In this document: positions 45,713 to 58,026 of the stretch, piece by piece
How the letters are laid out: each line of letters begins with the position of its first letter
How positions within the stretch are numbered: the stretch's first letter is position 1
From: a bacterium
Lineage (GTDB): Bacteria; Bacillota_I; Bacilli_A; RFN20; CAG-826
Direction of reading: 5' to 3'
Length of the DNA: 64,000 bases
NCBI GenBank assembly: GCA_963638555.1
Contig: CAVHQU010000001.1
Span: 169,309-233,308, forward strand
Notes under the pieces: model-generated
The model's input: the letters and a program-made list of their open reading frames with translations, nothing else
The model's database searches: none
What the model was told of the DNA's origin: nothing
Made by a program: the position numbers and the translations under genes

Positions 45713-45742
45713 TTCCCGATCTCTCAAGAGATCGGTTTTTTC
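45713..45742 (+). terminator. Rho-independent terminator (ccgatctct-caag-agagatcgg-TTTTTT)
   Basis: 9-bp perfect stem + T6 right after stop. Confidence 0.75.
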
Positions 45743-45849
45743 TATTTGATGGTATTTAGTCAAAAATGTACTTAAATTTTATTTAAAGGAAATAATTGAC
45801 TTAAGGATTATGCTCAAATAGAATTAAGCGTGTTTGGAGGGGAACGATT

Positions 45850-45966
45850 ATGAATATATTAGCCGGATTATCAATAATGGCTACTTGCATCACTTTTAAT
45901 GCATTCAAAATTGGCGAATCTACAATAGAAAATCCATTAGGAACACTACTGGGAGTAAAGCAATGA
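45850..45966 (+). CDS. Small hydrophobic peptide (38 aa), hypothetical
   Basis: TTGACT-17-TAGAAT promoter at 45796-45824, RBS ggagggg, ATG; product MNILAGLSIMATCITFNAFKIGESTIENPLGTLLGVKQ; an 18-aa hydrophobic ORF (45963..46019) overlaps its stop by ATGA. Confidence 0.35.
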   Translation: MNILAGLSIMATCITFNAFKIGESTIENPLGTLLGVKQ

Positions 45967-46080
45967 TGTTGGCATCTACGTTATCGATGGTCAGTATTGC
46001 ACTAATAGTTGGAGTTTGATACCAAATGAATAAAAATATGTTTTTCCCTGTCCTCCGCCTTACTTTTTTCGTGTAGTAAG

Positions 46081-46734
46081 GTGGATTTGGATAATTATCA
46101 CTCAGACACACTAATCAATATTTTCAAAACACAAAAATCTTGGTCTAATCAAAATAGTTTTCGTTACAAAGAGAAAGATGGTTTTATTTGCTCTGCATTT
46201 TTTTCTATCTACGACAATTGCATCTATGGCCTATTTGGTGGCACATATTGCAAATACGATTTTGAAGAAGAAATCGCAACTTTTATAGAAGATAACGCCA
46301 AAAGAAACGTAGTTTATCCTAAAATCTCAAACATTGATGAATTTTTTTCAACAATATGTGATGAATATAGCTATGAAAAAATCATTTCAGCAAATGACTT
46401 ATTGCCAGGCGTTGAGGATATTTTGCTAACTTGCGACAGCTGGCAATTAATCCTTGATTCAGAATCTCCACGAATCGTCAAAATCTTTTCATTTGAATCG
46501 TTTCTAAAAAGCGAAAAAATAATTTCAGCAATTAAGACCGTTTATAAAACAGAAGAATCCTTTAACGCATGGTTAGAGTCAAGTAAATATACATTTGATG
46601 ATGAAGAAATAGCAGTTGGTATTAGTTTAAATAAAGAAAGAGATCAAATCATTCCTCAAATCAATGTGGGGTCTTTAAGCACTTCATTTGAAAGATATGG
46701 AGATTTTAGTAGTTACCCTAACTATTTTAACTGA
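46081..46734 (+). CDS. Hypothetical cytoplasmic protein (GTG start), possible orphan immunity-type protein
   Basis: 217-aa ORF with GTG start; no family recognised; sits in a gene-poor AT-rich islet. Confidence 0.35.
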   Translation: MDLDNYHSDTLINIFKTQKSWSNQNSFRYKEKDGFICSAFFSIYDNCIYGLFGGTYCKYDFEEEIATFIEDNAKRNVVYPKISNIDEFFSTICDEYSYEKIISANDLLPGVEDILLTCDSWQLILDSESPRIVKIFSFESFLKSEKIISAIKTVYKTEESFNAWLESSKYTFDDEEIAVGISLNKERDQIIPQINVGSLSTSFERYGDFSSYPNYFN

Positions 46735-46909
46735 ATAACAAATTTCTCTTATTACATCGTTTATAAATATCCATTTTTGCAAGCTTAATAAAATCTTCAT
46801 CATTTAAATCAAAAATGTGAGATAGTTTTCTTCTATCTCACATGCTTATGGTTTGAATCTATGTAAACTATATATTCTTATTACTATATTGGCATTACCT
46901 TATCTTACC

Positions 46910-47053
46910 TCCTAGTAACTAATCTCTCTGAAGATCCCATAAATCTTCGAATGAGTCTTTCGTTCCCATCATTGTATTTAAATTTTCGATTAATAAGTCG
47001 GTTGATGGTAACTCAACTTCTAACCCAGTTCTACTATTTTGAATTTCTATCAT
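46910..47053 (-). CDS. Small protein (47 aa) preceded by 10-codon leader ORF (47057..47089)
   Basis: Minus-strand TTGACA-17-CATAAT promoter (47153..47181); leader ORF MKLRKGILKR has RBS aaaggagg; 47-aa ORF MIEIQNSRTGLEVELPSTDLLIENLNTMMGTKDSFEDLWDLQRD. Confidence 0.3.
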
Positions 47054-47313
47054 ATATTATCTTTTAAGAATTCCCTTCCTTAGTTTCATAAGAGCTACCT
47101 CCTTTAATTCAAGAGTAACATTTTCTTTGTTTTTGTTTCTCTTGATGGCAACATTATGACCTATTATGTAATGATTGTCAATACCTAAAGTAACATTTTT
47201 TTATTTTCGTAACTTTATTATATACTGTATAGAAAAATCTAGTATGTAATTGCCCTTTTGATAAAGGAGCGTATTCTAACAGTAGAAACGAAACAGCATA
47301 GAGAGGAACAACT

Positions 47314-47671
47314 ATGGGCTTTAAAACAGGCGGTGGCAATCATTTACAAGCATACGACATAAAAACCGGTCAATATACCGACGAGGAATTACATGAAATG
47401 AAGAAAAAGGATATGGAGAATCTAGTCTTTGTGCAATATATTTGGTTATGACATTTCAAAATATCCGTTCCATTATCCAAAAATGAAAATACATGATAGA
47501 GATTATTGTCAAACATTCATAGAATATTTCCGAAAACAGATAACTTCATTTCATATTGATAATCGTAAGATGCTATATCTCCTTACCTGGCACGAAAAGG
47601 ACGATAAAAGCAAATACCTTGAGAAAATAGGTTATTCAAAAGAAAGGCCTGATGAATTAAGTAAAGATTAA
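47314..47671 (+). pseudogene. Frameshifted gene (two overlapping frames: 47314..47448 and 47429..47671), unknown function
   Basis: Good RBS (gagagg) + ATG 47314; frame ends ...LVFVQYIWL*; the +1 frame continues CNIFGYDISKYP... over the same bases; consistent with a 1-nt indel. Confidence 0.45.
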
Positions 47672-47840
47672 AATTTGCATTCAAAAGAGAAAGATTAATA
47701 TTTTCTAGATTGGACGAATATGGTTTGAATTGCGTCGAAGAAATCGAACTCAAAGGGCATAAAGTAAAAACATATTGGCAAATTAATTTAGATGATTCTT
47801 CAGCCAAATTTGTTACATTAATACCAGGAGGGTTAAAGAA

Positions 47841-48050
47841 ATGAACGTTAAAATTGGCGATTGCATAAAGACATTAGTAGATAAAACAACTTACATGGAA
47901 GATAGCGATTATTTTATCGTTAAAAAAGGAAGTGAAGGACTTGTATGCGAAGTCTACAACGATGGCGGAGTACTTGTCGAAATCGAAGAAAACGACGAAC
48001 ATCCGTTTGCATTAGTTTCTTACAGAGCAGATGAGTATGAAAAATCTTGA
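47841..48050 (+). CDS. Small DUF4926-like protein (69 aa)
   Basis: RBS aggaggg; pattern 'GD.I.TL.D......G..G.V.EVY.DG...VE........AL.S......E' resembles the DUF4926 small-protein family. Confidence 0.5.
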   Translation: MNVKIGDCIKTLVDKTTYMEDSDYFIVKKGSEGLVCEVYNDGGVLVEIEENDEHPFALVSYRADEYEKS

Positions 48051-48061
48051 AAGCCTTTATT

Positions 48062-48294
48062 ATGTATAAAGTTAAGACTTCCATTAAAATTGGTTATCGC
48101 ATAAAACATTAGTAGATAAAACCACATATTGGGGAGATAGTGGCAATTTTCTATTGCCAAAAGGCAGTGAAGGCCTCGTATGTGAAGTTTATGATGAAAC
48201 GATTCTTGTGGAATTCGCAGAAACAAGTGAACGTTCATTCGCTTTACAAGACTATAAAATCGGCGAATACGAAATAATAAGTAAGGACGATTGA
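48062..48294 (+). pseudogene. Frameshifted tandem paralog of 47841..48050
   Basis: DNA-level similarity to upstream copy with a 1-nt deletion (ataaaacatt vs ataaagacatt) giving TAG after 17 codons; the downstream frame KTLVDKTTYWGDSGNFLLPKGSEGLVCEVYDETILVEFAE... is intact. Confidence 0.55.
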
Positions 48295-48302
48295 GAATTC
48301 AA

Positions 48303-49112
48303 TTATTTCTCAATAACCATAACATTTACTCTGCCTGTTGCAACAGTGCGCGCATCTAAGGCGATAATCTTGTTTTTATCGTCTTTGAATATAGGATTTG
48401 TTTTAGCAACTTCTTCGTTAAAAGAGTCTGGAGCGAGATATCGATAGAATGCTGAAGAATGCCAATGGCCAACAACTAAAGTTTTGCCTTTAGCCTCTTC
48501 GGGATTGAAATATCCTTCTAAATACATAATATATGGGCAACCCCATGCTGCGTTTTCCCAAATCTTTTCATCAGTTTGGTTTCTCCAATTTGGATCGTAT
48601 TTAAAACCAAAAAACGTACATTGCGTATCAAGTCTATCCATATTCTTTAAAGGAATAAATGAGTGAACAAAAATAAGGTTATCTAATTCAAAATAGTTAA
48701 CCCATTCATCAGAAAACATCCAATCAACTATTTCTTTGATTATTCTTGCGTGCAAGTGATTAGAAAGAAAAGATGGTCCACATTCCTCCGGATCCAACTT
48801 ATAATTGCCTGCTTCGAGAAATTGAAAAAATGTTTTGCTAGTCCCATTGGTGTTATCCCATATATCAGGATATTTTTTATGCGATAATTCTCTAAATAGA
48901 TATTCATGATTTCCTCTAATTAGAATTCTTCTATCTCTAGGCAAAGTTTTAATCCATTTATAGAGCTTCACCGCTTCATTGCCTCTATCAAAAAGATCAC
49001 CGCAAATAATAATTTTATGTTCTGGATTTTCTCTATCAAATCCAGCTTCTGATAAAGCCTTCATATATATTGAGAAGAATCCATGAATATCACTGGAAAC
49101 GAAGTATTTCAT
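48303..49112 (-). CDS. Calcineurin-like metallophosphoesterase
   Basis: 'VSSDIHGFF', 'ICGDLFDRG', 'GNHE' metallophosphatase motifs. Confidence 0.85.
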   Translation of the reverse strand: MKYFVSSDIHGFFSIYMKALSEAGFDRENPEHKIIICGDLFDRGNEAVKLYKWIKTLPRDRRILIRGNHEYLFRELSHKKYPDIWDNTNGTSKTFFQFLEAGNYKLDPEECGPSFLSNHLHARIIKEIVDWMFSDEWVNYFELDNLIFVHSFIPLKNMDRLDTQCTFFGFKYDPNWRNQTDEKIWENAAWGCPYIMYLEGYFNPEEAKGKTLVVGHWHSSAFYRYLAPDSFNEEVAKTNPIFKDDKNKIIALDARTVATGRVNVMVIEK

Positions 49113-49139
49113 ATATACGTACCCCTTGTTTTTATATTT

Positions 49140-50282
49140 TTATAAGTTGTTAAAAAGTCTTTCAAAAAGTTCTTTCCAAGAATTTTCAATGTTTTTTTCT
49201 TGGTATTTTTCTGCAAATTCATATGTGCTTCGTTTAAGGGATTGAAGCTTGTCTTTGTCTTTTAAGAGTTCAATTATCTTATTAGCAAAAGCATCTGGAT
49301 CATTTGAATCAATAACATAACCGTTAATATCATTTTTTATTACGGAACTCGTTGGGTCGCCCATCTCTTTCCAAATAGTTGGAACTGAGAGAGTATTGGC
49401 CTCAATAACAGTTAAAGGGAAACCTTCAAATTTAGATGTAATTAAATAAAGATCGCTTTCTAGATAATGAGGTTCTAATTGAGATATGCCTGATATCAAA
49501 TGAACGTTTTTTAGATTATTTTCTTTGATATAGTTTTCCATTTTTGGCTTCATGCTGCCATTACCATATATGTTAAAAACATACTTGAAACCTTTTTCAT
49601 CTAGAGATTTAGCCACCTTTAGTAACATCATCGGATCTTTTTGATCTTCGAACCTGCAAGCGCTCATGATGGTGTTGCTATGATATTCAAAATTCTCTTT
49701 TCTTTTAAATCTTGATGGATTGTAGATTACTGAACTAGGAAGTTTGTTATCTTTATCGATTGCTTTTCTGGTCGCATCAGTAAGAAAAATGTAATAAGAA
49801 GGTTTCTTCGATAAGCATCTGAATATTTTTGAAACAAACGATTTATATAATTTTGAGTTGAAATGAAAATGCTGAACAATAAATCTGTTTTTTGGTGCAA
49901 ACAAAAGAAGCTCTTGGCTAGCAAAAACGAAAATATCATCTTTGCTTGACATCTTTTCTAGCTTTTTTCTCCATTTGAATCTTCCAAACGTATATTCATG
50001 AAGACACGTAAATAGAAGTTTTAAGGCTTTAAGATAATGATGGTCATTCCATTTCTTGCCAAAATTAGAATCCAATTGAGATATTTCATCTTTAAAAGAA
50101 ATATCTTCCAAAACGATGTTCTTGGGAAGATCGTATTTTATTTTTTCTCTATCTATTTTAGAAAACGGAATGAGGTGAATCTCATAATCATTCTCTAACA
50201 TCCTAATAATTTGGAGGGTAACCATTTCGGTTCCTCCAATATTATTAAGTTGTTGAATGCACCAATAGATTTTTTTCTTCAT
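49140..50282 (-). CDS. Glycosyltransferase family 4 (GT-B, group 1)
   Basis: C-terminal 'SKFEGFPLTVIEANTLSVPTI' GT4 E-x7-E motif region. Confidence 0.8.
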   Translation of the reverse strand: MKKKIYWCIQQLNNIGGTEMVTLQIIRMLENDYEIHLIPFSKIDREKIKYDLPKNIVLEDISFKDEISQLDSNFGKKWNDHHYLKALKLLFTCLHEYTFGRFKWRKKLEKMSSKDDIFVFASQELLLFAPKNRFIVQHFHFNSKLYKSFVSKIFRCLSKKPSYYIFLTDATRKAIDKDNKLPSSVIYNPSRFKRKENFEYHSNTIMSACRFEDQKDPMMLLKVAKSLDEKGFKYVFNIYGNGSMKPKMENYIKENNLKNVHLISGISQLEPHYLESDLYLITSKFEGFPLTVIEANTLSVPTIWKEMGDPTSSVIKNDINGYVIDSNDPDAFANKIIELLKDKDKLQSLKRSTYEFAEKYQEKNIENSWKELFERLFNNL

Positions 50283-50323
50283 GAAGATATTATACTAAAT
50301 ATTCTCAGTCTTTACCCTTAAAT

Positions 50324-51601
50324 CTACACACGCACCCCTTCTTTTTGATATTTATCCTTAATTTTTATAATTTGAGAACGCGCAAGAATTTCTTTCTTAG
50401 CAAGCTCATGAGCGAGTTCATCTAAGAATGGGCGATTATCAATTAACATTTGTTTTGTTTTAGCATAGAAAACGTTCATCTCATGTGCAATGAGGTTGTT
50501 TTGCTTAGTCTTCAAATCTTCCGAAGCCGTCCTACCATCACAAATCATTGCATCAAATCCGTAAGCGCCAAGCGTTGGATATCTATGGAGAATTCTATAA
50601 GCTCTATCAACGTCGCTTTCGACACCCATATCTTCTTCGCCATAAACGATTTCAGTCGCAGCCTTGCCAGCTAATAAAGCCATAACTCTGTTATCCATAT
50701 TAGATTTATATGCCCAATAATCGTCCGGATTGCTCAAAGAAGTGAAACCAGCATTATCGCTATAATGGTTCTTAATAGTAAGAAGATTAACGCATCCAGG
50801 ATTGAGAATTTCAGCAATAACAGCATGCCCCGCTTCGTGATAAGCCGTTCTTAAGGCGACTTCTGGTGAATATCCACTTTCGCCTTCTGGAGCGCGGTAA
50901 ATGATTCTCATACATGCGTTAATGATATCCTCTTCTTCAATCGCTTTTTTATTGTTATACCCAGCATACAGTCCAGCAAGATTAATTACACTTTCAAGTT
51001 CAGCGCATGAATGACCGCTTAATAATCTAGCAATGTCCTCTGGGTTAATTCCTTCAACGTGGACCTTATTCGATAAATAATACTTAACGATTCCCGTTGC
51101 TTCATCAGTTCTAGGGGCATCAACTTTTATGACAGTATCAAACCTTCCAGCACGGATTAGAGAATCAGGAAGAGATTCCAGTGAATTTGTTGTAGCAAGA
51201 ACAAACACGCCTTTGTTTTTTACTTCATCAATGCAAGATTGAACAGTAATGTATTCCTCTGCGTTGCGGTGAAAATCATCTTCATTGGCGAACTTATCCA
51301 TATCATCCAAGAAGACAATAGATGGAGCATTCTCTAAAGCCAAATTGAATGCATTTCTAATTTGATTAACAAACTCTCCATCAGATTTATCTTTTCTACA
51401 CGTATATGCCTTTAACCCAGATTCTTCAATAAAGCAATTTGCCATGAGAGTTTTGCCAAGTCCTGGTTCACCATCTAATAACAATCCTTGTGAAAGGGTT
51501 ATTCCTAATTCTTCGTATTTCTTTCTGTTCTTAATTGAATCGCAAAGCCTTGCTAATTCTTTTTTGATTGATGAATAGCCAATAATTTTTTCAAAGCCCA
51601 T
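50324..51601 (-). CDS. Soluble FtsH-like AAA+ ATPase fused to M41 zinc-metallopeptidase domain (no transmembrane region)
   Basis: Walker A 'GEPGLGKT', Walker B 'VFLDDMD', SRH; 'TAYHEAGHAVIAEIL' HExxH and downstream 'AGKAATEIVYGEE...SDVDRA' match the FtsH protease domain; no N-terminal hydrophobic helices. Confidence 0.75.
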   Translation of the reverse strand: MGFEKIIGYSSIKKELARLCDSIKNRKKYEELGITLSQGLLLDGEPGLGKTLMANCFIEESGLKAYTCRKDKSDGEFVNQIRNAFNLALENAPSIVFLDDMDKFANEDDFHRNAEEYITVQSCIDEVKNKGVFVLATTNSLESLPDSLIRAGRFDTVIKVDAPRTDEATGIVKYYLSNKVHVEGINPEDIARLLSGHSCAELESVINLAGLYAGYNNKKAIEEEDIINACMRIIYRAPEGESGYSPEVALRTAYHEAGHAVIAEILNPGCVNLLTIKNHYSDNAGFTSLSNPDDYWAYKSNMDNRVMALLAGKAATEIVYGEEDMGVESDVDRAYRILHRYPTLGAYGFDAMICDGRTASEDLKTKQNNLIAHEMNVFYAKTKQMLIDNRPFLDELAHELAKKEILARSQIIKIKDKYQKEGVRV

Positions 51602-52093
51602 AATATTGTTCCTTTCTTAATTATCAATGTAGACGCATGAATAAAGTCGTTGCTGAAAATTAGGTTTTATAACCTTTATTGCTGTTATCTTTATCAGTAA
51701 GTGTATTTTCTGAATTTTGAGGTTGTTAACTTTAGCCTACTCAATAGTGTTATCAAGCATTCGCCTTAACAATAACTTCATACCCCCTCTTCAATAACAT
51801 TAAAGTGAAATGTTTGGTAATACTAAAAAATAATCAACAAATACTATTATCAAGTAAACTACATTTAGTCGATTAACCCGCTGTAGTGTGTAGTATTGGG
51901 TTTTGATCGATGTGGCTATAAGTATAGTTGTAGGTTAATATTTTGTCAATCTATGAACGTGATTAAAATAATATAATAAATTTATTTATTATATTTTTTT
52001 AAATGTTTTCATTATAACGACCGTTTAGCGCATAAAGAAAGGTGAGCAAATTTTCTTCGTCTCTTATATGTCTTTTTTTAATTTATTGCAGGA

Positions 52094-53389
52094 TTAATTT
52101 TTCAAACAACTGATAGGAACAACACAAACCCCATCTTCTCTTCTATAGCATGAACCATGACTCGTTAAAACCATTTTAAATTTTGGCGCCTCATGATTGC
52201 TAGCTACAACCCTTTTCTCAAATAATTTTAAAGAATTAGCTCCTTTTTCTATATTATCGGGGTCTGCCAATTTAATTTCTATTGCACCATATTTGCCATT
52301 TGGCAATTCAACAATGGCGTCTACTTCTTGCCCACTGCTGTCTCTATAGTGTTTAATCGTTGCATCTATAGACTCGGAATATACAGATAAATCTCTGATT
52401 GCAAAATCTTCGAAGAATAAGCCAAATGAATTTAAGTCATTCAGTAGATCGCTTGGATTTATCCCTAAACAAGCAGCCGCAATAGACGTATCAATGAAAT
52501 GATGAGTTGGAGCGTTTCTAACGGAAACAGAGCTTCTCAGATTAAGATTCCAGGCAGGCATATCATAGACAATAAACAAATCCTTCAAAACTTTAACATA
52601 AGTGTCAAACGTATCTTCATCTAGTTTTGATCTATTCCCAGATTCAATAATATCAGATATCATTTTCGTCTTTTTGGCTTGTGTAGATATATTTCTTGCA
52701 TATGATTTTAAAATTAAAGTCAACAGATCAATATTTTTACCTTTTAAAAATAGCGAAAAATCATCATTCTCATCTTCAATCGTGAATAAACCTTTATAAT
52801 AGTTTTTAGTGATACGTATCGCTTGTTCCGGATTGCTAACCTTGCTGGCCAAAGGCCATCCTCCCCTGCAAATTAGATTTGCAATATCGCTCAACGAAAT
52901 AGAATTGTCATAGTCAAATAAATTTTTAAATTCATAATCGTTCTCTTCAAAAAGAGACCTCAAAGAAACAATTCCAAGTGATTCTCCAGACTCATATAAA
53001 GTAAAAGGCTTGAGCGTCATTGAAACTATTCTTCCAGCGCCAGAATGTTGTATTTGTTGTGCACCGACTGGAGTTGTACTTCCAGTGATTATGTATTTTC
53101 CGAAAACATAATCATGGTCCAAATCGCTTTTTATGTAATTCCATATGTCAGGAACTTTTTGCCATTCATCAATCAAATGCGGATACTCGCCAACCAGTGC
53201 GCATCTTGGGTCAGCTTTCGCTAATCCAATGGCATTGGCCGTCTTCAATTCGGTAATCGATTTAGCGTATTGGGTACACATTGTTGATTTTCCGCAAAAT
53301 TTTGGCCCTGTCACCAAAACACAGCCCATTGAACTCAAATTTAATTTCAACGCATCTTCTGCAAGTCTTTTTATATATCTATCTGCCAT
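52094..53389 (-). CDS. AAA-superfamily ATPase with C-terminal DUF4143-type domain
   Basis: Walker A 'VTGPKFCGKST'; ~430 aa architecture typical of 'ATP-binding protein' AAA_14+DUF4143 family. Confidence 0.7.
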   Translation of the reverse strand: MADRYIKRLAEDALKLNLSSMGCVLVTGPKFCGKSTMCTQYAKSITELKTANAIGLAKADPRCALVGEYPHLIDEWQKVPDIWNYIKSDLDHDYVFGKYIITGSTTPVGAQQIQHSGAGRIVSMTLKPFTLYESGESLGIVSLRSLFEENDYEFKNLFDYDNSISLSDIANLICRGGWPLASKVSNPEQAIRITKNYYKGLFTIEDENDDFSLFLKGKNIDLLTLILKSYARNISTQAKKTKMISDIIESGNRSKLDEDTFDTYVKVLKDLFIVYDMPAWNLNLRSSVSVRNAPTHHFIDTSIAAACLGINPSDLLNDLNSFGLFFEDFAIRDLSVYSESIDATIKHYRDSSGQEVDAIVELPNGKYGAIEIKLADPDNIEKGANSLKLFEKRVVASNHEAPKFKMVLTSHGSCYRREDGVCVVPISCLKN

Positions 53390-53440
53390 ATAAGCACCTC
53401 ACATAAAAATTATATTCCTATCTCACTGATAAACAATATT

Positions 53441-53509
53441 ATTTTCGGTGTTTTGAAACTTTTATTTTCGGTGTTTTGAAACTTTTATTTTCGGTGTTTT
53501 GAAACTTTT
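53441..53509. repeat. Perfect 3 x 23-bp direct tandem repeat (attttcggtgttttgaaactttt)
   Basis: Read directly; lies in the promoter region of the minus-strand ATPase gene 52094..53389. Confidence 0.95.
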
Positions 53510-53517
53510 AAATCATT

Positions 53518-53546
53518 AAAAAAGAAAAAAGCTCGTTGACCGAGCT
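53518..53546 (-). terminator. Rho-independent terminator ending the 59.2->53.5 kb minus-strand operon
   Basis: agctcg-ttgac-cgagct hairpin followed (minus strand) by TTTTTTCTTTTT. Confidence 0.75.
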
Positions 53547-53548
53547 TA

Positions 53549-54250
53549 TCATTTCTTGAAATCTTCGTTTACTTTTTTCTCTACTTCATTGCAAATAACT
53601 TGTAATGAGCAGGAATGGCAATCCATTTTTACCTTATTCATCAAATGATCTAACGCTTTAGTAATGTTTTCACATTTCGTTACAATTGCGCTTAGCTCAT
53701 CGTATTTGTATTCATCAAAAGTAACAAAGATTGTCTTAACATTTTTAACAAAAGGGAGTTCTTTGTATTTGGAAATGAAATAATTTCCAAGCTTAGAAAA
53801 ATCTAAATGATCTTTTTTTAAAGAATTTTTAGAAACCAGAAGGCTTTCTTTTTTATTGAAAGCGGATTCTCTAACCATAACACCATCATAAGCAAAATGA
53901 TATTTCACATAGTCAAACTTACGAATGCTGTTATAAAGGACGTTTCCAGAGCCCATAAGGTCGTTATTAACGCTTGCAACGGTAATCCTCGCATAATTCC
54001 CATCGCCGTTAATTGAATTCAAATCTTGACCTATTAGAAGAATCTCATCATCGAATTCAGAATCAGTTAATAAATCGAGAACAACCCCTTTAAATTGGCT
54101 TGCACCTAATTCAAAGGCTTTTTCATTGCTGAAAATTAGTTGATTGTTATTCTCAATAAATGTTTGATTTTGATTGAGAGTTAGTCTTTTTGCTTCGTAT
54201 TTATTGTTGATTTCATTAACGTCATTAACTAAATCATCAAAAATAAACAT
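53549..54250 (-). CDS. Hypothetical protein with C-terminal CxxC motif
   Basis: 233 aa; 'DCHSCSLQVIC' near C-terminus; last gene of the HgdCAB-like operon; no family recognised. Confidence 0.5.
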   Translation of the reverse strand: MFIFDDLVNDVNEINNKYEAKRLTLNQNQTFIENNNQLIFSNEKAFELGASQFKGVVLDLLTDSEFDDEILLIGQDLNSINGDGNYARITVASVNNDLMGSGNVLYNSIRKFDYVKYHFAYDGVMVRESAFNKKESLLVSKNSLKKDHLDFSKLGNYFISKYKELPFVKNVKTIFVTFDEYKYDELSAIVTKCENITKALDHLMNKVKMDCHSCSLQVICNEVEKKVNEDFKK

Positions 54251-54473: not shown

Positions 54474-55280
54474 TTATCTTCCTCCTGCTAAGCCTTTTTG
54501 ACGGGCATATTCAGCAGCACCTAAAGCGCCCATTAATTGAGGATCGATAGGGAGGTTGACAACCTTTAAGTGTAAAACCTTTTCAATCGCGTCTTTTAAG
54601 CCATCGTTTTTAGCACAGCCACCAGTTAAGGTAATGTTATCAACTGCTCCAGCTTTCTTTGCCATGACGAAGCATCTTTTTGCAACTGAGAATTCAATGC
54701 CTGCAGCAATTTCGTCCATTGGTTTTCCTTCACCAACTAATGAGATAACTTCGGATTCAGCAAAAACCGTGCATTGAGCAGTGATAGGAATAATATTCTT
54801 TGCTTTCAAAGAAAGTTTTGAGAAAGTGTCTAAATCCATCTCGAAGGCTCTAGACATCGCTTCAAAGAATCTTCCTGTGCCAGCAGCGCATTTATCATTC
54901 ATAGCGAAATTAAGGACTGTTCCATCCGTATCAACGGCAATGCCTTTAACGTCTTGCCCACCAATATCAATAATTGCTTTGACGTTTGGATCAGTAACGT
55001 GGACACCCATCGCGTGGCAGGAAATCTCAGAAATATTTTCATCCGCAAAAGGAACTTTGTTTCTGCCATATCCTGTGCCAACCAAGTAAGATAAGTCTTT
55101 AGGGGAATTTAATCCTTCGACTTGAACAATTGCTTGATCTAAAGCATCTTGAGCGCTTAAAACGGAATTAATTCTGCTTCTTAAGGTAACATTTGCTACC
55201 ATCTTACCAGTTTCGTCGACAATAACGCATTTTGTATAGGTACTGCCGGAATCACAACCACCAAAATATTTCATATTCAT
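54474..55280 (-). CDS. 2-hydroxyacyl-CoA dehydratase activator (HgdC/BadF/BadG/BcrA/BcrD ATPase family)
   Basis: ASKHA fold 'YFGGCDSGSTYTKCVIVD'; cluster-ligand motif 'NDKCAAGTGRFFE' as in HgdC; ~268 aa. Confidence 0.85.
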   Translation of the reverse strand: MNMKYFGGCDSGSTYTKCVIVDETGKMVANVTLRSRINSVLSAQDALDQAIVQVEGLNSPKDLSYLVGTGYGRNKVPFADENISEISCHAMGVHVTDPNVKAIIDIGGQDVKGIAVDTDGTVLNFAMNDKCAAGTGRFFEAMSRAFEMDLDTFSKLSLKAKNIIPITAQCTVFAESEVISLVGEGKPMDEIAAGIEFSVAKRCFVMAKKAGAVDNITLTGGCAKNDGLKDAIEKVLHLKVVNLPIDPQLMGALGAAEYARQKGLAGGR

Positions 55281-55288
55281 TTATCTCC

Positions 55289-56836
55289 TTACCATGATTT
55301 TGCATCATCAATAACTTCTAAGCTTGGATCAACAGGTTCTTCTCTCATGACAGAGCGCATATATCTGTTAACTTGATCCCTAACGCCTTGTTTAGAAATG
55401 ACACGTGGGTCCATTAAATCGTGATCGACCCAAACGAGTTTGATACCATGTTCTCTAGCACGTTGTTCAAACATACCATGCATGCCATCGAGAGCTTTAC
55501 AAGAAATGTGTTCCCACAGAATAACCATATCGGCCTTGTAGTAATCGCAGAACTTCCAAAGATCATCAAGTAAGACTTCATAGCCACCATGGGTTCTGTT
55601 TCTCATAATCATCTCTTCATAAAGTTTAGCGATATCGTATATTGCTTGTTCAGGATCATCTTCTGAAATCTCGTCAAAGTAGCAGAGAGAAAGCATATCG
55701 ACTAATGGAACGATTCCCCAGCAGTTTTGAAGCCATGGGAGGAAGTCCGTATAGAATTGAGATTGAACGCCCCAGATGATTGCTCTATGACGCATCTCTT
55801 TGCAAACCATTGCTTTTCTCTTATAAGCTTTTTCAGCAAGCTTTGTAATCTTTCTATCAGCCTTAACGAAGTCATCGGAGCGACCGGCAACAGCCATGTA
55901 TGTTGTTTCAGAATATAAAGCTAAGTTAGCACCAAAGACTTGTGGGTAATCCGTTCTAGACATTTCCATCCAGGATTTACGAAGCCTTGTTTCTTCGTTG
56001 AAGCGTTTAGCACATTTGAAATAGTTATCCCAATTCCATTTTTCACCAGTTTTTTCTTCAATGAATTTGATAGCGTTTCTGATTTCTTGTGCAGCATATT
56101 CTTGAACGCCTTCTTCAGTATGTCTAAGAGGTGCAGCAATTTGGAAAGTAGGAACACCAAATTCTTCATATTTTTTACCCATGATGCCATTTCCCATCAA
56201 AGATCCATCACATGTTGTGTTACATTGAACGGCGCATGCGCCATAAATTGGCATATCTTCGTCAACTGCGCAGCCAGCTTCAGCGGCAGGCATTGGGCAA
56301 ACGTCGCCAGGAATACCCATTTCCTGAAGAACATCAAGATAGTGAGTGACAGCCATTGGATTTAATAAGACAGAGACATATACGGCTGCAGTTTCCCAAC
56401 TAACAGCATATAAGTTAGGGAAACCACACATGACGTGGAACATTTCGTTTTCATCAAGAACAACGCATTTCTTAGAGAATTTTTCATTATTTCCACATCT
56501 TTTATCTGCTTTGAATACTCTCGTTAAAAGTTGAGCAATATCTAGAGCAACCAAATCATATTCAGTATGAGCGATTCTAAGTGCTTCCTTTCTCAAACCC
56601 GTCGTATGTTTATCAATCATCATCGGGACAGCTAGATAGTTAAGCATCCATCTGTATCTAAAGAAACCTTTTAAATTATTTGGCTTAACGATGAATTTAG
56701 CCAACATCCACATGATTTTAAGCCAGCATCTGAAGTCATAGAAAGTGTCTACGAAGCCTCTCCACTCTCTTCTCTTTCTGACTTTTTTTCCGTTATAAAG
56801 CTTTCCTAAGGCTTCGGAACCTACTTTTGCTCCCAT
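55289..56836 (-). CDS. 2-hydroxyacyl-CoA dehydratase / benzoyl-CoA-reductase-like D-component, large (HgdA-like) subunit
   Basis: 515 aa; HGD-D family hallmarks (Cys-rich 'CPMPAAEAGCAVD...ACAVQCNTTCDGS', 'KFCDYYK'); shares its stop/start position with the next gene. Confidence 0.75.
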   Translation of the reverse strand: MGAKVGSEALGKLYNGKKVRKRREWRGFVDTFYDFRCWLKIMWMLAKFIVKPNNLKGFFRYRWMLNYLAVPMMIDKHTTGLRKEALRIAHTEYDLVALDIAQLLTRVFKADKRCGNNEKFSKKCVVLDENEMFHVMCGFPNLYAVSWETAAVYVSVLLNPMAVTHYLDVLQEMGIPGDVCPMPAAEAGCAVDEDMPIYGACAVQCNTTCDGSLMGNGIMGKKYEEFGVPTFQIAAPLRHTEEGVQEYAAQEIRNAIKFIEEKTGEKWNWDNYFKCAKRFNEETRLRKSWMEMSRTDYPQVFGANLALYSETTYMAVAGRSDDFVKADRKITKLAEKAYKRKAMVCKEMRHRAIIWGVQSQFYTDFLPWLQNCWGIVPLVDMLSLCYFDEISEDDPEQAIYDIAKLYEEMIMRNRTHGGYEVLLDDLWKFCDYYKADMVILWEHISCKALDGMHGMFEQRAREHGIKLVWVDHDLMDPRVISKQGVRDQVNRYMRSVMREEPVDPSLEVIDDAKSW

Positions 56837-58026
56837 TATTTTTTGCCTCCTTGAATCTTCTTAATCTCAATGCTTTCAACGAAAGCTTGAACTCTGGTTC
56901 TAATTTGTCCAGATGAACCAACAGCATATGGTCTATCAATAGAGAGAACAGGGTAGTTGTAATCGTCTCTAAGCATATGGGTGCCAGTCATTCTTTCGTA
57001 TGCCCATGGGTCACAGAATTTCATTTGCTCATAAATAATTCCATCGGCATGGTAATCTTTAGCAATTTGATTAACATATTCTTTTCTTTGTCTGAATTTT
57101 GGAAGATTCATATGGCGTGGGCACATGCATGAATGCATGTATTGGGCACATATTTGGGTTAGTACATCTTCATTGTCGTTAAGGATGATTTCTTGTCTTC
57201 CTGGAAGAGAACCGAAACAATATCTGTCAGCAACAACAAGGGCGCCAGATTCTTCAATGAGTTTAATCATATCGACATCATCAACTTCTGATCCGACGAC
57301 AGCAACCTTTGCACGGTATTTCTTTTTTGCATCTGGAACGCGTGTTTTTACTTCTTCAAGAGTCTCCTCAAGTTTATCGATTAATAAGTAATGAGGGCAG
57401 ACGTATGTGCACATGGTGATGATATGGAACTCATATCCAGTGATACGTGGGTTCTCTTCTTTTCTAAATTCACCTAGTTCGGTTATGATGCGGCAAATCT
57501 TGTTATGCTCCTTAACTGCTTCTCTTAAAGCATCATCAGAAACGTCTATTCCAAAATGTTCATGCAAAGAGTTTAAAATCTTCTTGCGGCATTCAGAAAC
57601 GTATAAGTTCAAGCCGTTATCATCGTCCTTCATAGGAACTTCTAGATATTCGTAGAAGAAATTATCTGCTGGCATTGTTTTGAGTAATTCCATGTTTTCA
57701 ACACAGCGATTGATCATTGAACAGCCATCAGGCGTAAAAAGGCAATCAAGATATTGATATCCGCCTTCGATAGCTCTTTCTAATAACGCTCTCGTATATT
57801 CACATAAAAAGGAGGTCATATAGTATGTCCCCATCTCAAGAGAGCCGGTACGTGGAGCTCTTAAACGTGAGGAGAAGCATCCTTTGAGGTTAAGAAGAAC
57901 TTCAGGAATTTGCGAGCATGTCGTGCCAAGGCACTTAAGCCCTTCTTCTTTTGCTTGTCTTACTAGATCATTATTCGCGTTATCTAGTAATTGCTCGAAA
58001 TAATACAAATGTTTTAAATCTTTCAT
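56836..58026 (-). CDS. 2-hydroxyacyl-CoA dehydratase-like D-component, small (HgdB-like) subunit
   Basis: 396 aa; 'CLGTTC', 'MKFCDPWAYE' and other HGD-D family features. Confidence 0.75.
   Translation of the reverse strand: MKDLKHLYYFEQLLDNANNDLVRQAKEEGLKCLGTTCSQIPEVLLNLKGCFSSRLRAPRTGSLEMGTYYMTSFLCEYTRALLERAIEGGYQYLDCLFTPDGCSMINRCVENMELLKTMPADNFFYEYLEVPMKDDDNGLNLYVSECRKKILNSLHEHFGIDVSDDALREAVKEHNKICRIITELGEFRKEENPRITGYEFHIITMCTYVCPHYLLIDKLEETLEEVKTRVPDAKKKYRAKVAVVGSEVDDVDMIKLIEESGALVVADRYCFGSLPGRQEIILNDNEDVLTQICAQYMHSCMCPRHMNLPKFRQRKEYVNQIAKDYHADGIIYEQMKFCDPWAYERMTGTHMLRDDYNYPVLSIDRPYAVGSSGQIRTRVQAFVESIEIKKIQGGKK

Follow-up and report, generated by a model that had tools for sequence, protein, structure and literature searches.

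A predicted soluble FtsH-like AAA–M41 protein and the large, unnamed family to which it belongs

What can an FtsH-type protease be for when it has no membrane anchor? The question is raised by a gene on the 64,000-nucleotide (nt) stretch of bacterial DNA analysed here (the window; GenBank assembly GCA_963638555.1, contig CAVHQU010000001.1, forward-strand positions 169,309–233,308; GTDB lineage Bacillota_I, Bacilli_A, RFN20, CAG-826), which encodes a 425-residue protein with the AAA and M41 zinc-protease domains of FtsH. FtsH biology has been built around the membrane, and the literature calls FtsH the sole membrane-anchored AAA+ protease (for example PMC8943139, PMC9020784). A first-pass annotation, made from the sequence, had described the product as a cytosolic FtsH-like enzyme lacking the anchor, and had suggested a soluble paralog of FtsH that could be a dedicated regulatory protease or part of a defence island. 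The architecture is confirmed below. To judge from its motifs and relatives, the gene is functional and belongs to a large, still unnamed family of soluble FtsH-like proteins. We propose, with a probability of about 0.6, that its product is a soluble zinc protease, regulated by ATP, whose role is targeted regulatory proteolysis; this mechanism is one that we infer.

The protein matches Pfam AAA and Peptidase_M41 in the order found in FtsH (Table 1), and the HEAGH zinc site and its downstream acidic ligand, D330, are both in place, as the annotation had stated. The NCBIfam model of the FtsH family (TIGR01241) is aligned over model positions 161–598 only, which make up the cytoplasmic part; because the match starts at position 161, the transmembrane (TM) helices and the periplasmic domain are missing. 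Alignment puts the N-terminal deficit at about 150 residues relative to FtsH, and the protein starts exactly where the cytoplasmic part of FtsH starts. No hydrophobic or TM segment was found within the 425 residues, the peak 19-residue Kyte–Doolittle mean being 1.19.

An alignment confined to the cytoplasmic part of FtsH is also what a 5′-truncated ftsH pseudogene would give, or a gene whose TM helices come from an upstream open reading frame (ORF), and the annotation had named both as points to check. This explanation is refuted. An in-frame TAA lies at 51617–51619, six codons 5′ of the ATG, and a scan of the 492-nt upstream spacer gave no in-frame hydrophobic ORF able to supply TM helices. 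The gene has its own ribosome-binding site and a promoter-like site, its ratio of nonsynonymous to synonymous substitution rates (dN/dS) is 0.098, and its N-terminus is conserved among hundreds of relatives, with more than 150 divergent clusters of the same length.

The substitution ratio comes from an ortholog (L099) that is 93% identical (dN 0.033, dS 0.336). A second ortholog, 74% identical, lies in a syntenic relative with 72% nucleotide identity (L001/L002), where the gene keeps the same chromosomal position, adjoining the same 868-residue lipoprotein-like gene, HAD and guaA. Beyond these orthologs, the best 120 database matches are all of 413–452 residues with AAA and M41 domains, and the architecture of about 420 residues recurs in at least 150 clusters at 50% identity. 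The best 150 representatives in the 50%-identity library all have E < 1e-76, and nearly all are 405–460 residues long and aligned from about residue 3. Some long matches with several AAA domains (P0192, P0202, P0228 and P0269) were rejected as members: they are tandem AAA/FtsH fusions, some with FtsH_ext, that rank high by summed domain scores.

We define the family by a length of about 405–460 residues, a protein start at the AAA N-terminus (MxxFxxIxGY, with conserved residues F3, I7, G8 and Y9), an LDDxDK Walker B motif, a HEAGH site and no TM segment. All of these are present in the 425-residue protein and are shared with its 120 closest proteins and with 141 representatives. A pattern scan using one genome per species found relatives in 385 species genomes. 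Among the matches listed (80 of the 385 loci), all are from Bacillota, namely Christensenellales-like Clostridia, Lachnospiraceae, Oscillospirales, Selenomonadaceae and other Negativicutes, and Erysipelotrichaceae; the family is frequent in human and animal gut metagenomes. Cultured carriers include Butyrivibrio proteoclasticus B316 (on the megaplasmid pCY186), Butyrivibrio sp. VCD2006, Pseudobutyrivibrio sp. MD2005 and Schwartzia succinivorans DSM 10502. The protein is not a lineage-specific paralog of the host's ftsH: what emerged is a large family scattered across Clostridia, Negativicutes and Erysipelotrichaceae, a megaplasmid and a few viral contigs; the 64-kb window contains no canonical ftsH. 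Databases label the family proteins only as 'AAA family ATPase'. The FtsH/M41 type is already known, and the novelty lies in an unnamed anchorless subfamily with altered pore loops.

An AlphaFold2 model built from a 52-sequence alignment has a mean pLDDT of 85.4 and a pTM of 0.77. The first matches in a Foldseek search of the PDB were cytoplasmic regions of FtsH (PDB code 3KDS, TM-score 0.79; 7TDO, TM-score 0.75), followed by AFG3L2 (6NYY, TM-score up to 0.84), YME1 (6AZ0, TM-score 0.78) and FtsHi subunits. As the predicted fold matches those of FtsH, AFG3L2 and YME1, the model identifies the protein as a true structural homolog of the entire cytoplasmic FtsH unit. It is nevertheless distinct from FtsH in the curated sense on four counts: the anchor, the Walker B Glu, the pore-loop motif and the curated score, with 194.5 bits against an equivalog cut-off of 600 for TIGR01241 and 108.7 bits against a cut-off of 1008 for NF008004.

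The motifs were compared in a census of the 141 family representatives at 50% identity, in alignments of the 425-residue protein with FtsH from E. coli, Lachnospira eligens and a C. botulinum plasmid, and in an alignment of the family profile with T. maritima FtsH. The AAA module had been called complete, which is correct as regards Walker A (141 of 141), the sensor-1 Asn (N139; 138 of 141) and the Arg fingers (R150 in 139 and R153 in 138), but not as regards Walker B or the two pore loops. Walker B reads L-D-D-x-D in 139 representatives, against I-D-E-x-D in FtsH (E. coli and L. eligens); the pore-1 segment is four residues shorter than that of FtsH and is without the aromatic-hydrophobic-Gly (MFVG) motif, and the pore-2 loop is shorter by 5–6 residues. 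The protease site is retained, with HExxH in 140 of the 141 representatives and the third-ligand Asp (D330) in 139, in an M41 domain that is about 14 residues short relative to FtsH. In the established mechanism of AAA+ enzymes, the substrate is gripped by the pore-1 aromatic residue and water is activated by the Walker B Glu. Because both of these features are altered, a canonical processive threading motor is unlikely; the conserved motifs suggest that the family binds ATP and senses it between subunits.

We therefore favour regulated over processive proteolysis in the following form. The M41 domains would assemble the protein into an FtsH-like cytosolic ring, in which ATP binding and slow hydrolysis would serve as a conformational switch or gate and not as the drive for pore-loop threading. 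Cleavage would be limited or targeted, directed at particular soluble proteins. The likeliest targets would be DNA-associated regulators or replication factors of an island, a mobile element or an invader; general membrane-protein quality control would not be the role.

The genomic context of the family was analysed by clustering all ORFs within 10 kb of the gene in 83 loci. The sole strongly recurrent neighbour is a single cluster of HTH-WYL-WCX regulators of about 330–345 residues, present in 44 of the 83 loci; its orientation is nearly always that of the FtsH-like gene, which it often follows directly. In about 24 of 82 loci a WYL gene lies no more than two genes away on one side or the other, and WYL proteins account for 24 of the 282 neighbours within that distance. 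Rarer neighbours include DUF2779/Cas4-like nucleases (11 loci), PPP-type phosphoesterases (11 loci), DEDDh exonucleases, SpoVK-like AAA proteins, Macro, YAcAr, LRR_5 and HD proteins and ADP-ribosylglycohydrolases. The settings of the family are variable islands, the replication module of a megaplasmid and, in rare cases, viral contigs.

In the islands of Christensenellales type, a WYL gene is followed by variable cargo (a GmrSD pair, DUF2779, a DnaB_C-like ATPase), an unknown gene and the FtsH-like gene, and then by a 43-residue ORF, a DEDDh exonuclease, YAcAr and a 336-residue DNA_pol3_alpha fragment; in one case BrxL and a LexA-like gene lie next door. At one such locus (L091, 11266–11872), and likewise in L003, L092, L093 and L094, the stop codon of the FtsH-like gene overlaps the 43-residue ORF, which itself overlaps the DEDDh (RNase_T) gene. 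The small ORF is conserved and hydrophilic, and a membrane tether supplied by a small neighbouring ORF was rejected on that account and on its absence from the window. The DEDDh exonuclease of these islands occurs in a form of about 160 residues or one of about 450. The short form may correspond to the diDNases known from Clostridia islands (PMC11706625); the paper on those enzymes describes DEDD nuclease genes in Clostridia islands and does not mention the anchorless protein.

On pCY186 a homolog with 40% identity lies within the replication region, in the order Rep, HTH, WYL, MBL, DnaX, a hypothetical gene, the homolog, a second hypothetical gene, a DnaA/Hda-like gene, SGNH, PolC and DnaB. 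This megaplasmid (L087, 117783–137048) carries its own replisome set (DnaX, PolC, DnaB, the DnaA/Hda-like gene and Rep), with the WYL gene and the FtsH-like homolog inside it. In IMG/VR the family was found on only three of 2.9 million contigs, where SSB, ligase, NrdD, dUTPase, RF-1 and serine recombinases are among the neighbours. One of these is a huge phage-like contig of 214 kb (L097, IMGVR_UViG_3300011008_000004) with a 37%-identical member; around the gene in L097 and L096 are dUTPase, an intein-containing NrdD, a class-I release factor, peptide deformylase, an NAD-dependent ligase and SSB. A phage origin of the family was considered and rejected, given these three contigs and the INPHARED records, which hold only full-length FtsH-type genes with less than 30% identity. 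Two family members carry a C-terminal extension: residues 429–480 of P0153 form an FtsK_gamma winged-helix DNA-binding domain (49.8 bits, above the Pfam threshold), and residues 455–503 of P0125 give a weaker match to the same domain (22.2 bits, under the gathering score). These domains hint at action on or near DNA.

Surroundings of this kind raise the possibility that the protein is an accessory factor for the replication or maintenance of mobile-element DNA, which would remodel or degrade initiators, repressors or the replisome and regulatory proteins of the host, the window copy being a domesticated or stranded remnant. ClpXP, ClpAP and FtsH are known to act on lambda O, CII, Xis and plasmid Rep proteins, and FtsH genes of phytoplasma mobile units (see below) offer an analogue. 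The position of the pCY186 homolog between DnaX and the DnaA/Hda-like gene with PolC and DnaB near and Rep upstream, the translational coupling to the DEDDh exonuclease through the 43-residue ORF in islands with same-strand DNA_pol3_alpha and DnaB_C-like genes, the FtsK_gamma fusions together with FtsK neighbours at some loci, and the replication and recombination genes on the viral contigs all speak for such a role. Many loci, however, have no recognizable replication genes, the family is very rare in IMG/VR, and the window copy has housekeeping flanks over 64 kb with no replication, integrase or transposase gene among those scanned. We regard this explanation as unlikely.

Regulators of the HTH-WYL-WCX type control BREX and CBASS systems, and their recurrence beside the family is one of several observations that would suit an effector of anti-phage defence or abortive infection. 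Such a soluble AAA protease would be restrained until infection, in many genomes by a WYL sensor-regulator such as BrxR or CapW, and would then degrade phage or host proteins, with IetAS, the Lon-like BrxL and protease-based abortive infection as analogues. The window gene's upstream neighbour is a full-length match to a PADLOC candidate defence family, PDC-S01; similarity to IetA is seen in the AAA part (PADLOC 1.8e-23; NCBIfam IteA 1.9e-18); other loci have GmrSD pairs, BrxL, McrBC, DpdF, dGTPase, PDC-S26 or PtuA-like genes nearby; and the distribution is patchy, in low-GC variable islands. Against this, PADLOC matches other than WYL among the immediate neighbours are sporadic (PDC-S01, PDC-S26, PDC-S02, PtuA-like, DpdF, dGTPase, McrBC) and account for few of the 282 neighbours scanned at a distance of up to two genes. 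The family lacks a fixed partner gene, no IetS-like serine protease adjoins the window gene, the likeness to IetA is limited to the generic classical AAA module, the family as such is not in PADLOC, and pCY186 and the viral contigs show replication and nucleotide-metabolism genes in place of defence genes. The defence island envisaged by the first-pass annotation fits these data, with clear variable-island surroundings and known defence genes nearby, yet the idea has weak support, and we consider a dedicated defence role doubtful. Both the replication and the defence explanations are more specific versions of targeted regulatory proteolysis, and we give them equal weight.

Several observations weigh against a nucleotide-gated regulatory protease as proposed here. 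Alignments with FtsH, both from the family profile and from MAFFT, set F77–V78 opposite the pore Phe-Val of FtsH and delete the GVGA that follows, and F77 is present in 124 of the 141 representatives. An alignment with VAT instead sets S73–D74 at the aromatic positions of pore-1, and in the AlphaFold2 model F77 lies in the first turn of helix 74–90 and not at a loop tip. With the pore-1 alignments in conflict, a modified yet working pore loop has to be allowed for, and an Asp in place of the Walker B Glu may still be compatible with hydrolysis. Neighbouring genes vary greatly, the majority being without a Pfam family, and full-text literature searches returned no description of an anchorless FtsH family. 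A tblastn search with representatives of the WYL cluster found no WYL gene in the 64-kb window, and the best contextual clue therefore does not apply locally.

The same F77–V78 pair, read as a possible pore residue in one alignment, could be taken together with the full FtsH-like fold and the intact zinc and ATP-binding sites to indicate a general cytosolic quality-control protease, that is, a soluble FtsH acting processively on misfolded or tagged proteins and overlapping with Lon or Clp. We consider this very unlikely because of the distribution and motifs of the family: a patchy, island-borne occurrence is atypical of a housekeeping protease, and the D-D form of Walker B and the shortening of both pore loops are family-wide. 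The FtsH equivalog score, 194 against 600 bits, also falls far short. Targeted proteolysis by a soluble ring remains our preferred explanation.

The window copy is solitary and chromosomal (Table 1). Its outer flanks are housekeeping or metabolic, with GMP synthase, Ogt, HAD, two HGD-D dehydratase subunits and a BcrAD_BadFG activator, and no integrase or transposase was found among the window ORFs scanned. The neighbours reported by the annotation (a GT4 glycosyltransferase, a metallophosphoesterase, an AAA/DUF4143 ATPase and tandem repeats) were all recovered by domain matches and as a 23-bp repeat. The GT4 and phosphoesterase genes lie on an insertion whose cargo also includes a DUF4926-like ORF of 69 residues and ORFs of 80 and 217 residues without a known family. 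Because L001/L002 carry 211 nt in place of this segment, the two genes are recent additions 3′ of the FtsH-like gene. The intergenic gaps of 41 and 27 nt make co-transcription of the FtsH-like, GT4 and phosphoesterase genes probable in this genome. Neither was retained as a conserved partner: GT4 has no counterpart near other family members, and only distant kin of the phosphoesterase are seen, in the 11 loci mentioned above. Comparison of neighbourhoods, which had been suggested as a check, thus dismissed the local cluster and brought out instead the WYL regulators and a recurrence of distantly related phosphoesterases.

The AAA_14/DUF4143 ATPase is likewise not a conserved partner; a PDC-S01-like gene lies directly upstream in one other family locus. 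A perfect 23-bp tandem repeat in 3.1 copies (TTATTTTCGGTGTTTTGAAACTT) occupies 53439–53510, between a terminator-like hairpin (53529–53547) and the start of the ATPase gene, which it might serve as an operator or iteron-like element. Farther upstream are a 2-hydroxyacyl-CoA dehydratase operon (54474–58026, minus strand), which comprises the two HGD-D subunits and the BcrAD_BadFG activator, and after it a hydrophobic ORF of 72 residues and a Cys-containing ORF of 233 residues without a known family (53549–54250).

The FtsH-like gene appears to be expressed from its own σ70-like promoter with a long conserved leader. The leader contains a conserved direct repeat, TAGTATT(N15)TAGTATT, and a G-rich block; a 14-codon upstream ORF within it is not conserved in L001. 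A structured RNA or riboswitch was considered and rejected, with no Rfam match at E ≤ 1 and a fold z-score of −1.38; covariation among the 3–4 available sequences was uninformative.

Table 1. Features of the anchorless FtsH-like gene and its neighbourhood, in window coordinates
Feature	Position	Strand	Basis or remark
CDS of anchorless FtsH-like AAA–M41 protein, 425 residues, ATG start	50324–51601	-	ORF with Pfam, NCBIfam and PADLOC matches
AAA ATPase core, residues 40–161	51119–51484	-	Pfam AAA, E = 1.5e-19
Walker A, GEPGLGKT	51449–51472	-	Within AAA core; motif census and FtsH alignments
Walker B, IVFLDDMD, D-D form	51296–51319	-	Within AAA core; motif census and FtsH alignments
Sensor-1 N139; Arg fingers R150 and R153 (RAGRFD)	AAA core	-	Motif census and FtsH alignments
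AAA lid, residues 185–226	50924–51049	-	Pfam AAA_lid_3, E = 3.9e-4, under gathering score; helices in AlphaFold2 model
Peptidase_M41, residues 251–414	50360–50851	-	PF01434, E = 2.6e-15
HEAGH zinc site, residues 255–259	50825–50839	-	M41 domain; motif census
D330, third zinc ligand position	50612–50614	-	Aligned with third-ligand region of FtsH
Ribosome-binding site, AAAGGA	51610–51615	-	9–14 nt 5′ of ATG
Putative 5′ leader, about 310 nt	51602–51914	-	89% identity with L099, against about 73% at synonymous sites
Promoter-like site, TTGACA-17-TATACT	51921–51949	-	11/12 matches; conserved in L099 and L001
GT4 glycosyltransferase	49140–50282	-	Glycos_transf_1, 3.1e-30; begins 41 nt past the FtsH-like stop
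PPP-type metallophosphoesterase, NinI/ApaH-like	48303–49112	-	1.1e-13
Low-GC (0.31–0.33) insertion, 4.6 kb	45741–50318		211 nt in its place in syntenic relative L001/L002
AAA_14/DUF4143 ATPase, upstream neighbour	52094–53389	-	PADLOC candidate single-gene defence family PDC-S01, full length, 2.9e-64

The family is in effect a natural experiment on which parts of FtsH proteolysis needs: the zinc protease and the nucleotide site are retained, the anchor is gone, and the catalytic Glu and the two pore loops have changed. Mobile islands of gut Firmicutes may also have in it a regulatory or conflict function that has gone unrecognized, and the cultured carriers allow the family to be tested. A bolder version, which we think quite improbable, would make it a new mechanistic kind of AAA+ protease: a non-threading, FtsH-derived soluble ring with a nucleotide-gated M41 chamber, forming the proteolytic arm of a WYL-sensed island module for DNA damage or invaders and breaking down specific replication factors, phage proteins or regulators bound to DNA. 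Were that so, the nucleotide-gated, WYL-sensed ring would amount to an undescribed system of defence or element control and a natural test of FtsH without membrane or translocation motor. Should the protein prove instead to be a conventional soluble protease that depends on ATP, the outcome would be a useful correction of annotation.

Among known systems, IetA (IteA) of the anti-phage pair IetAS shares the classical-clade AAA similarity and also occurs in accessory islands. IetA, however, is without an M41 domain; its partner is IetS, an S8 serine protease encoded separately. The IteA score of the 425-residue protein (66.8 bits) lies well under the equivalog cut-off of 510, and no IetS-like serine protease was found among the neighbours scanned (GT4, phosphoesterase, AAA_14/DUF4143 and the ORFs of 233, 217, 80 and 69 residues). 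The modules ImmA–ImmR of ICEBs1, IrrE/PprI–DdrO and CapP–CapH are parallels by analogy only, each placing a zinc protease gene beside a gene for a transcription regulator in a mobile or stress module. ImmA-type proteases have a COG2856/ImmA-like fold and no AAA domain, in contrast to the M41 and AAA domains of the anchorless family; by this analogy one might imagine cleavage of the WYL protein, an idea that is purely hypothetical.

FtsH-type genes are found on mobile elements beside replication genes in the potential mobile units of phytoplasmas, in jumbo phages and on C. botulinum plasmids. The phytoplasma units carry extra copies of hflB with dnaB and dnaG (PMC8923039, PMC10210161). The phage and C. 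botulinum plasmid copies examined differ from the window protein in having 574–576 residues with the N-terminal region present, and are 26–29% identical to it.

The mitochondrial proteases YME1 and AFG3L2 (6AZ0, 6NYY) give the best superpositions of the model and have the same AAA and M41 organization. They are eukaryotic organelle enzymes, membrane-anchored, with canonical pore-loop aromatics and hand-over-hand threading of the substrate, and it is in the anchor, the aromatics and, probably, the threading that they differ from the anchorless family. The FtsHi pseudo-proteases of the chloroplast Ycf2–FtsHi motor (8XKU, 8XQW), which are among the Foldseek matches, are likewise diverged FtsH paralogs with altered machinery, but in the reverse sense: FtsHi proteins have lost the zinc site and kept the anchor and motor, whereas the anchorless family has kept the zinc site and lost the anchor and the canonical pore loops. 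FtsH/HflB itself (M41, TIGR01241; E. coli, and T. maritima 2CE7 and 3KDS) has the same domain order, from classical AAA through lid to M41, with 26–30% sequence identity to the 425-residue protein and with Walker A, the sensor-1 Asn, two Arg fingers, HEXXH and the downstream Asp ligand common to both. FtsH has TM helices and a periplasmic domain, and is universal and housekeeping, whereas the anchorless family has neither and is accessory and island-borne; it is nonetheless from the FtsH/M41 AAA proteases that the family descends, and like them that it works most.

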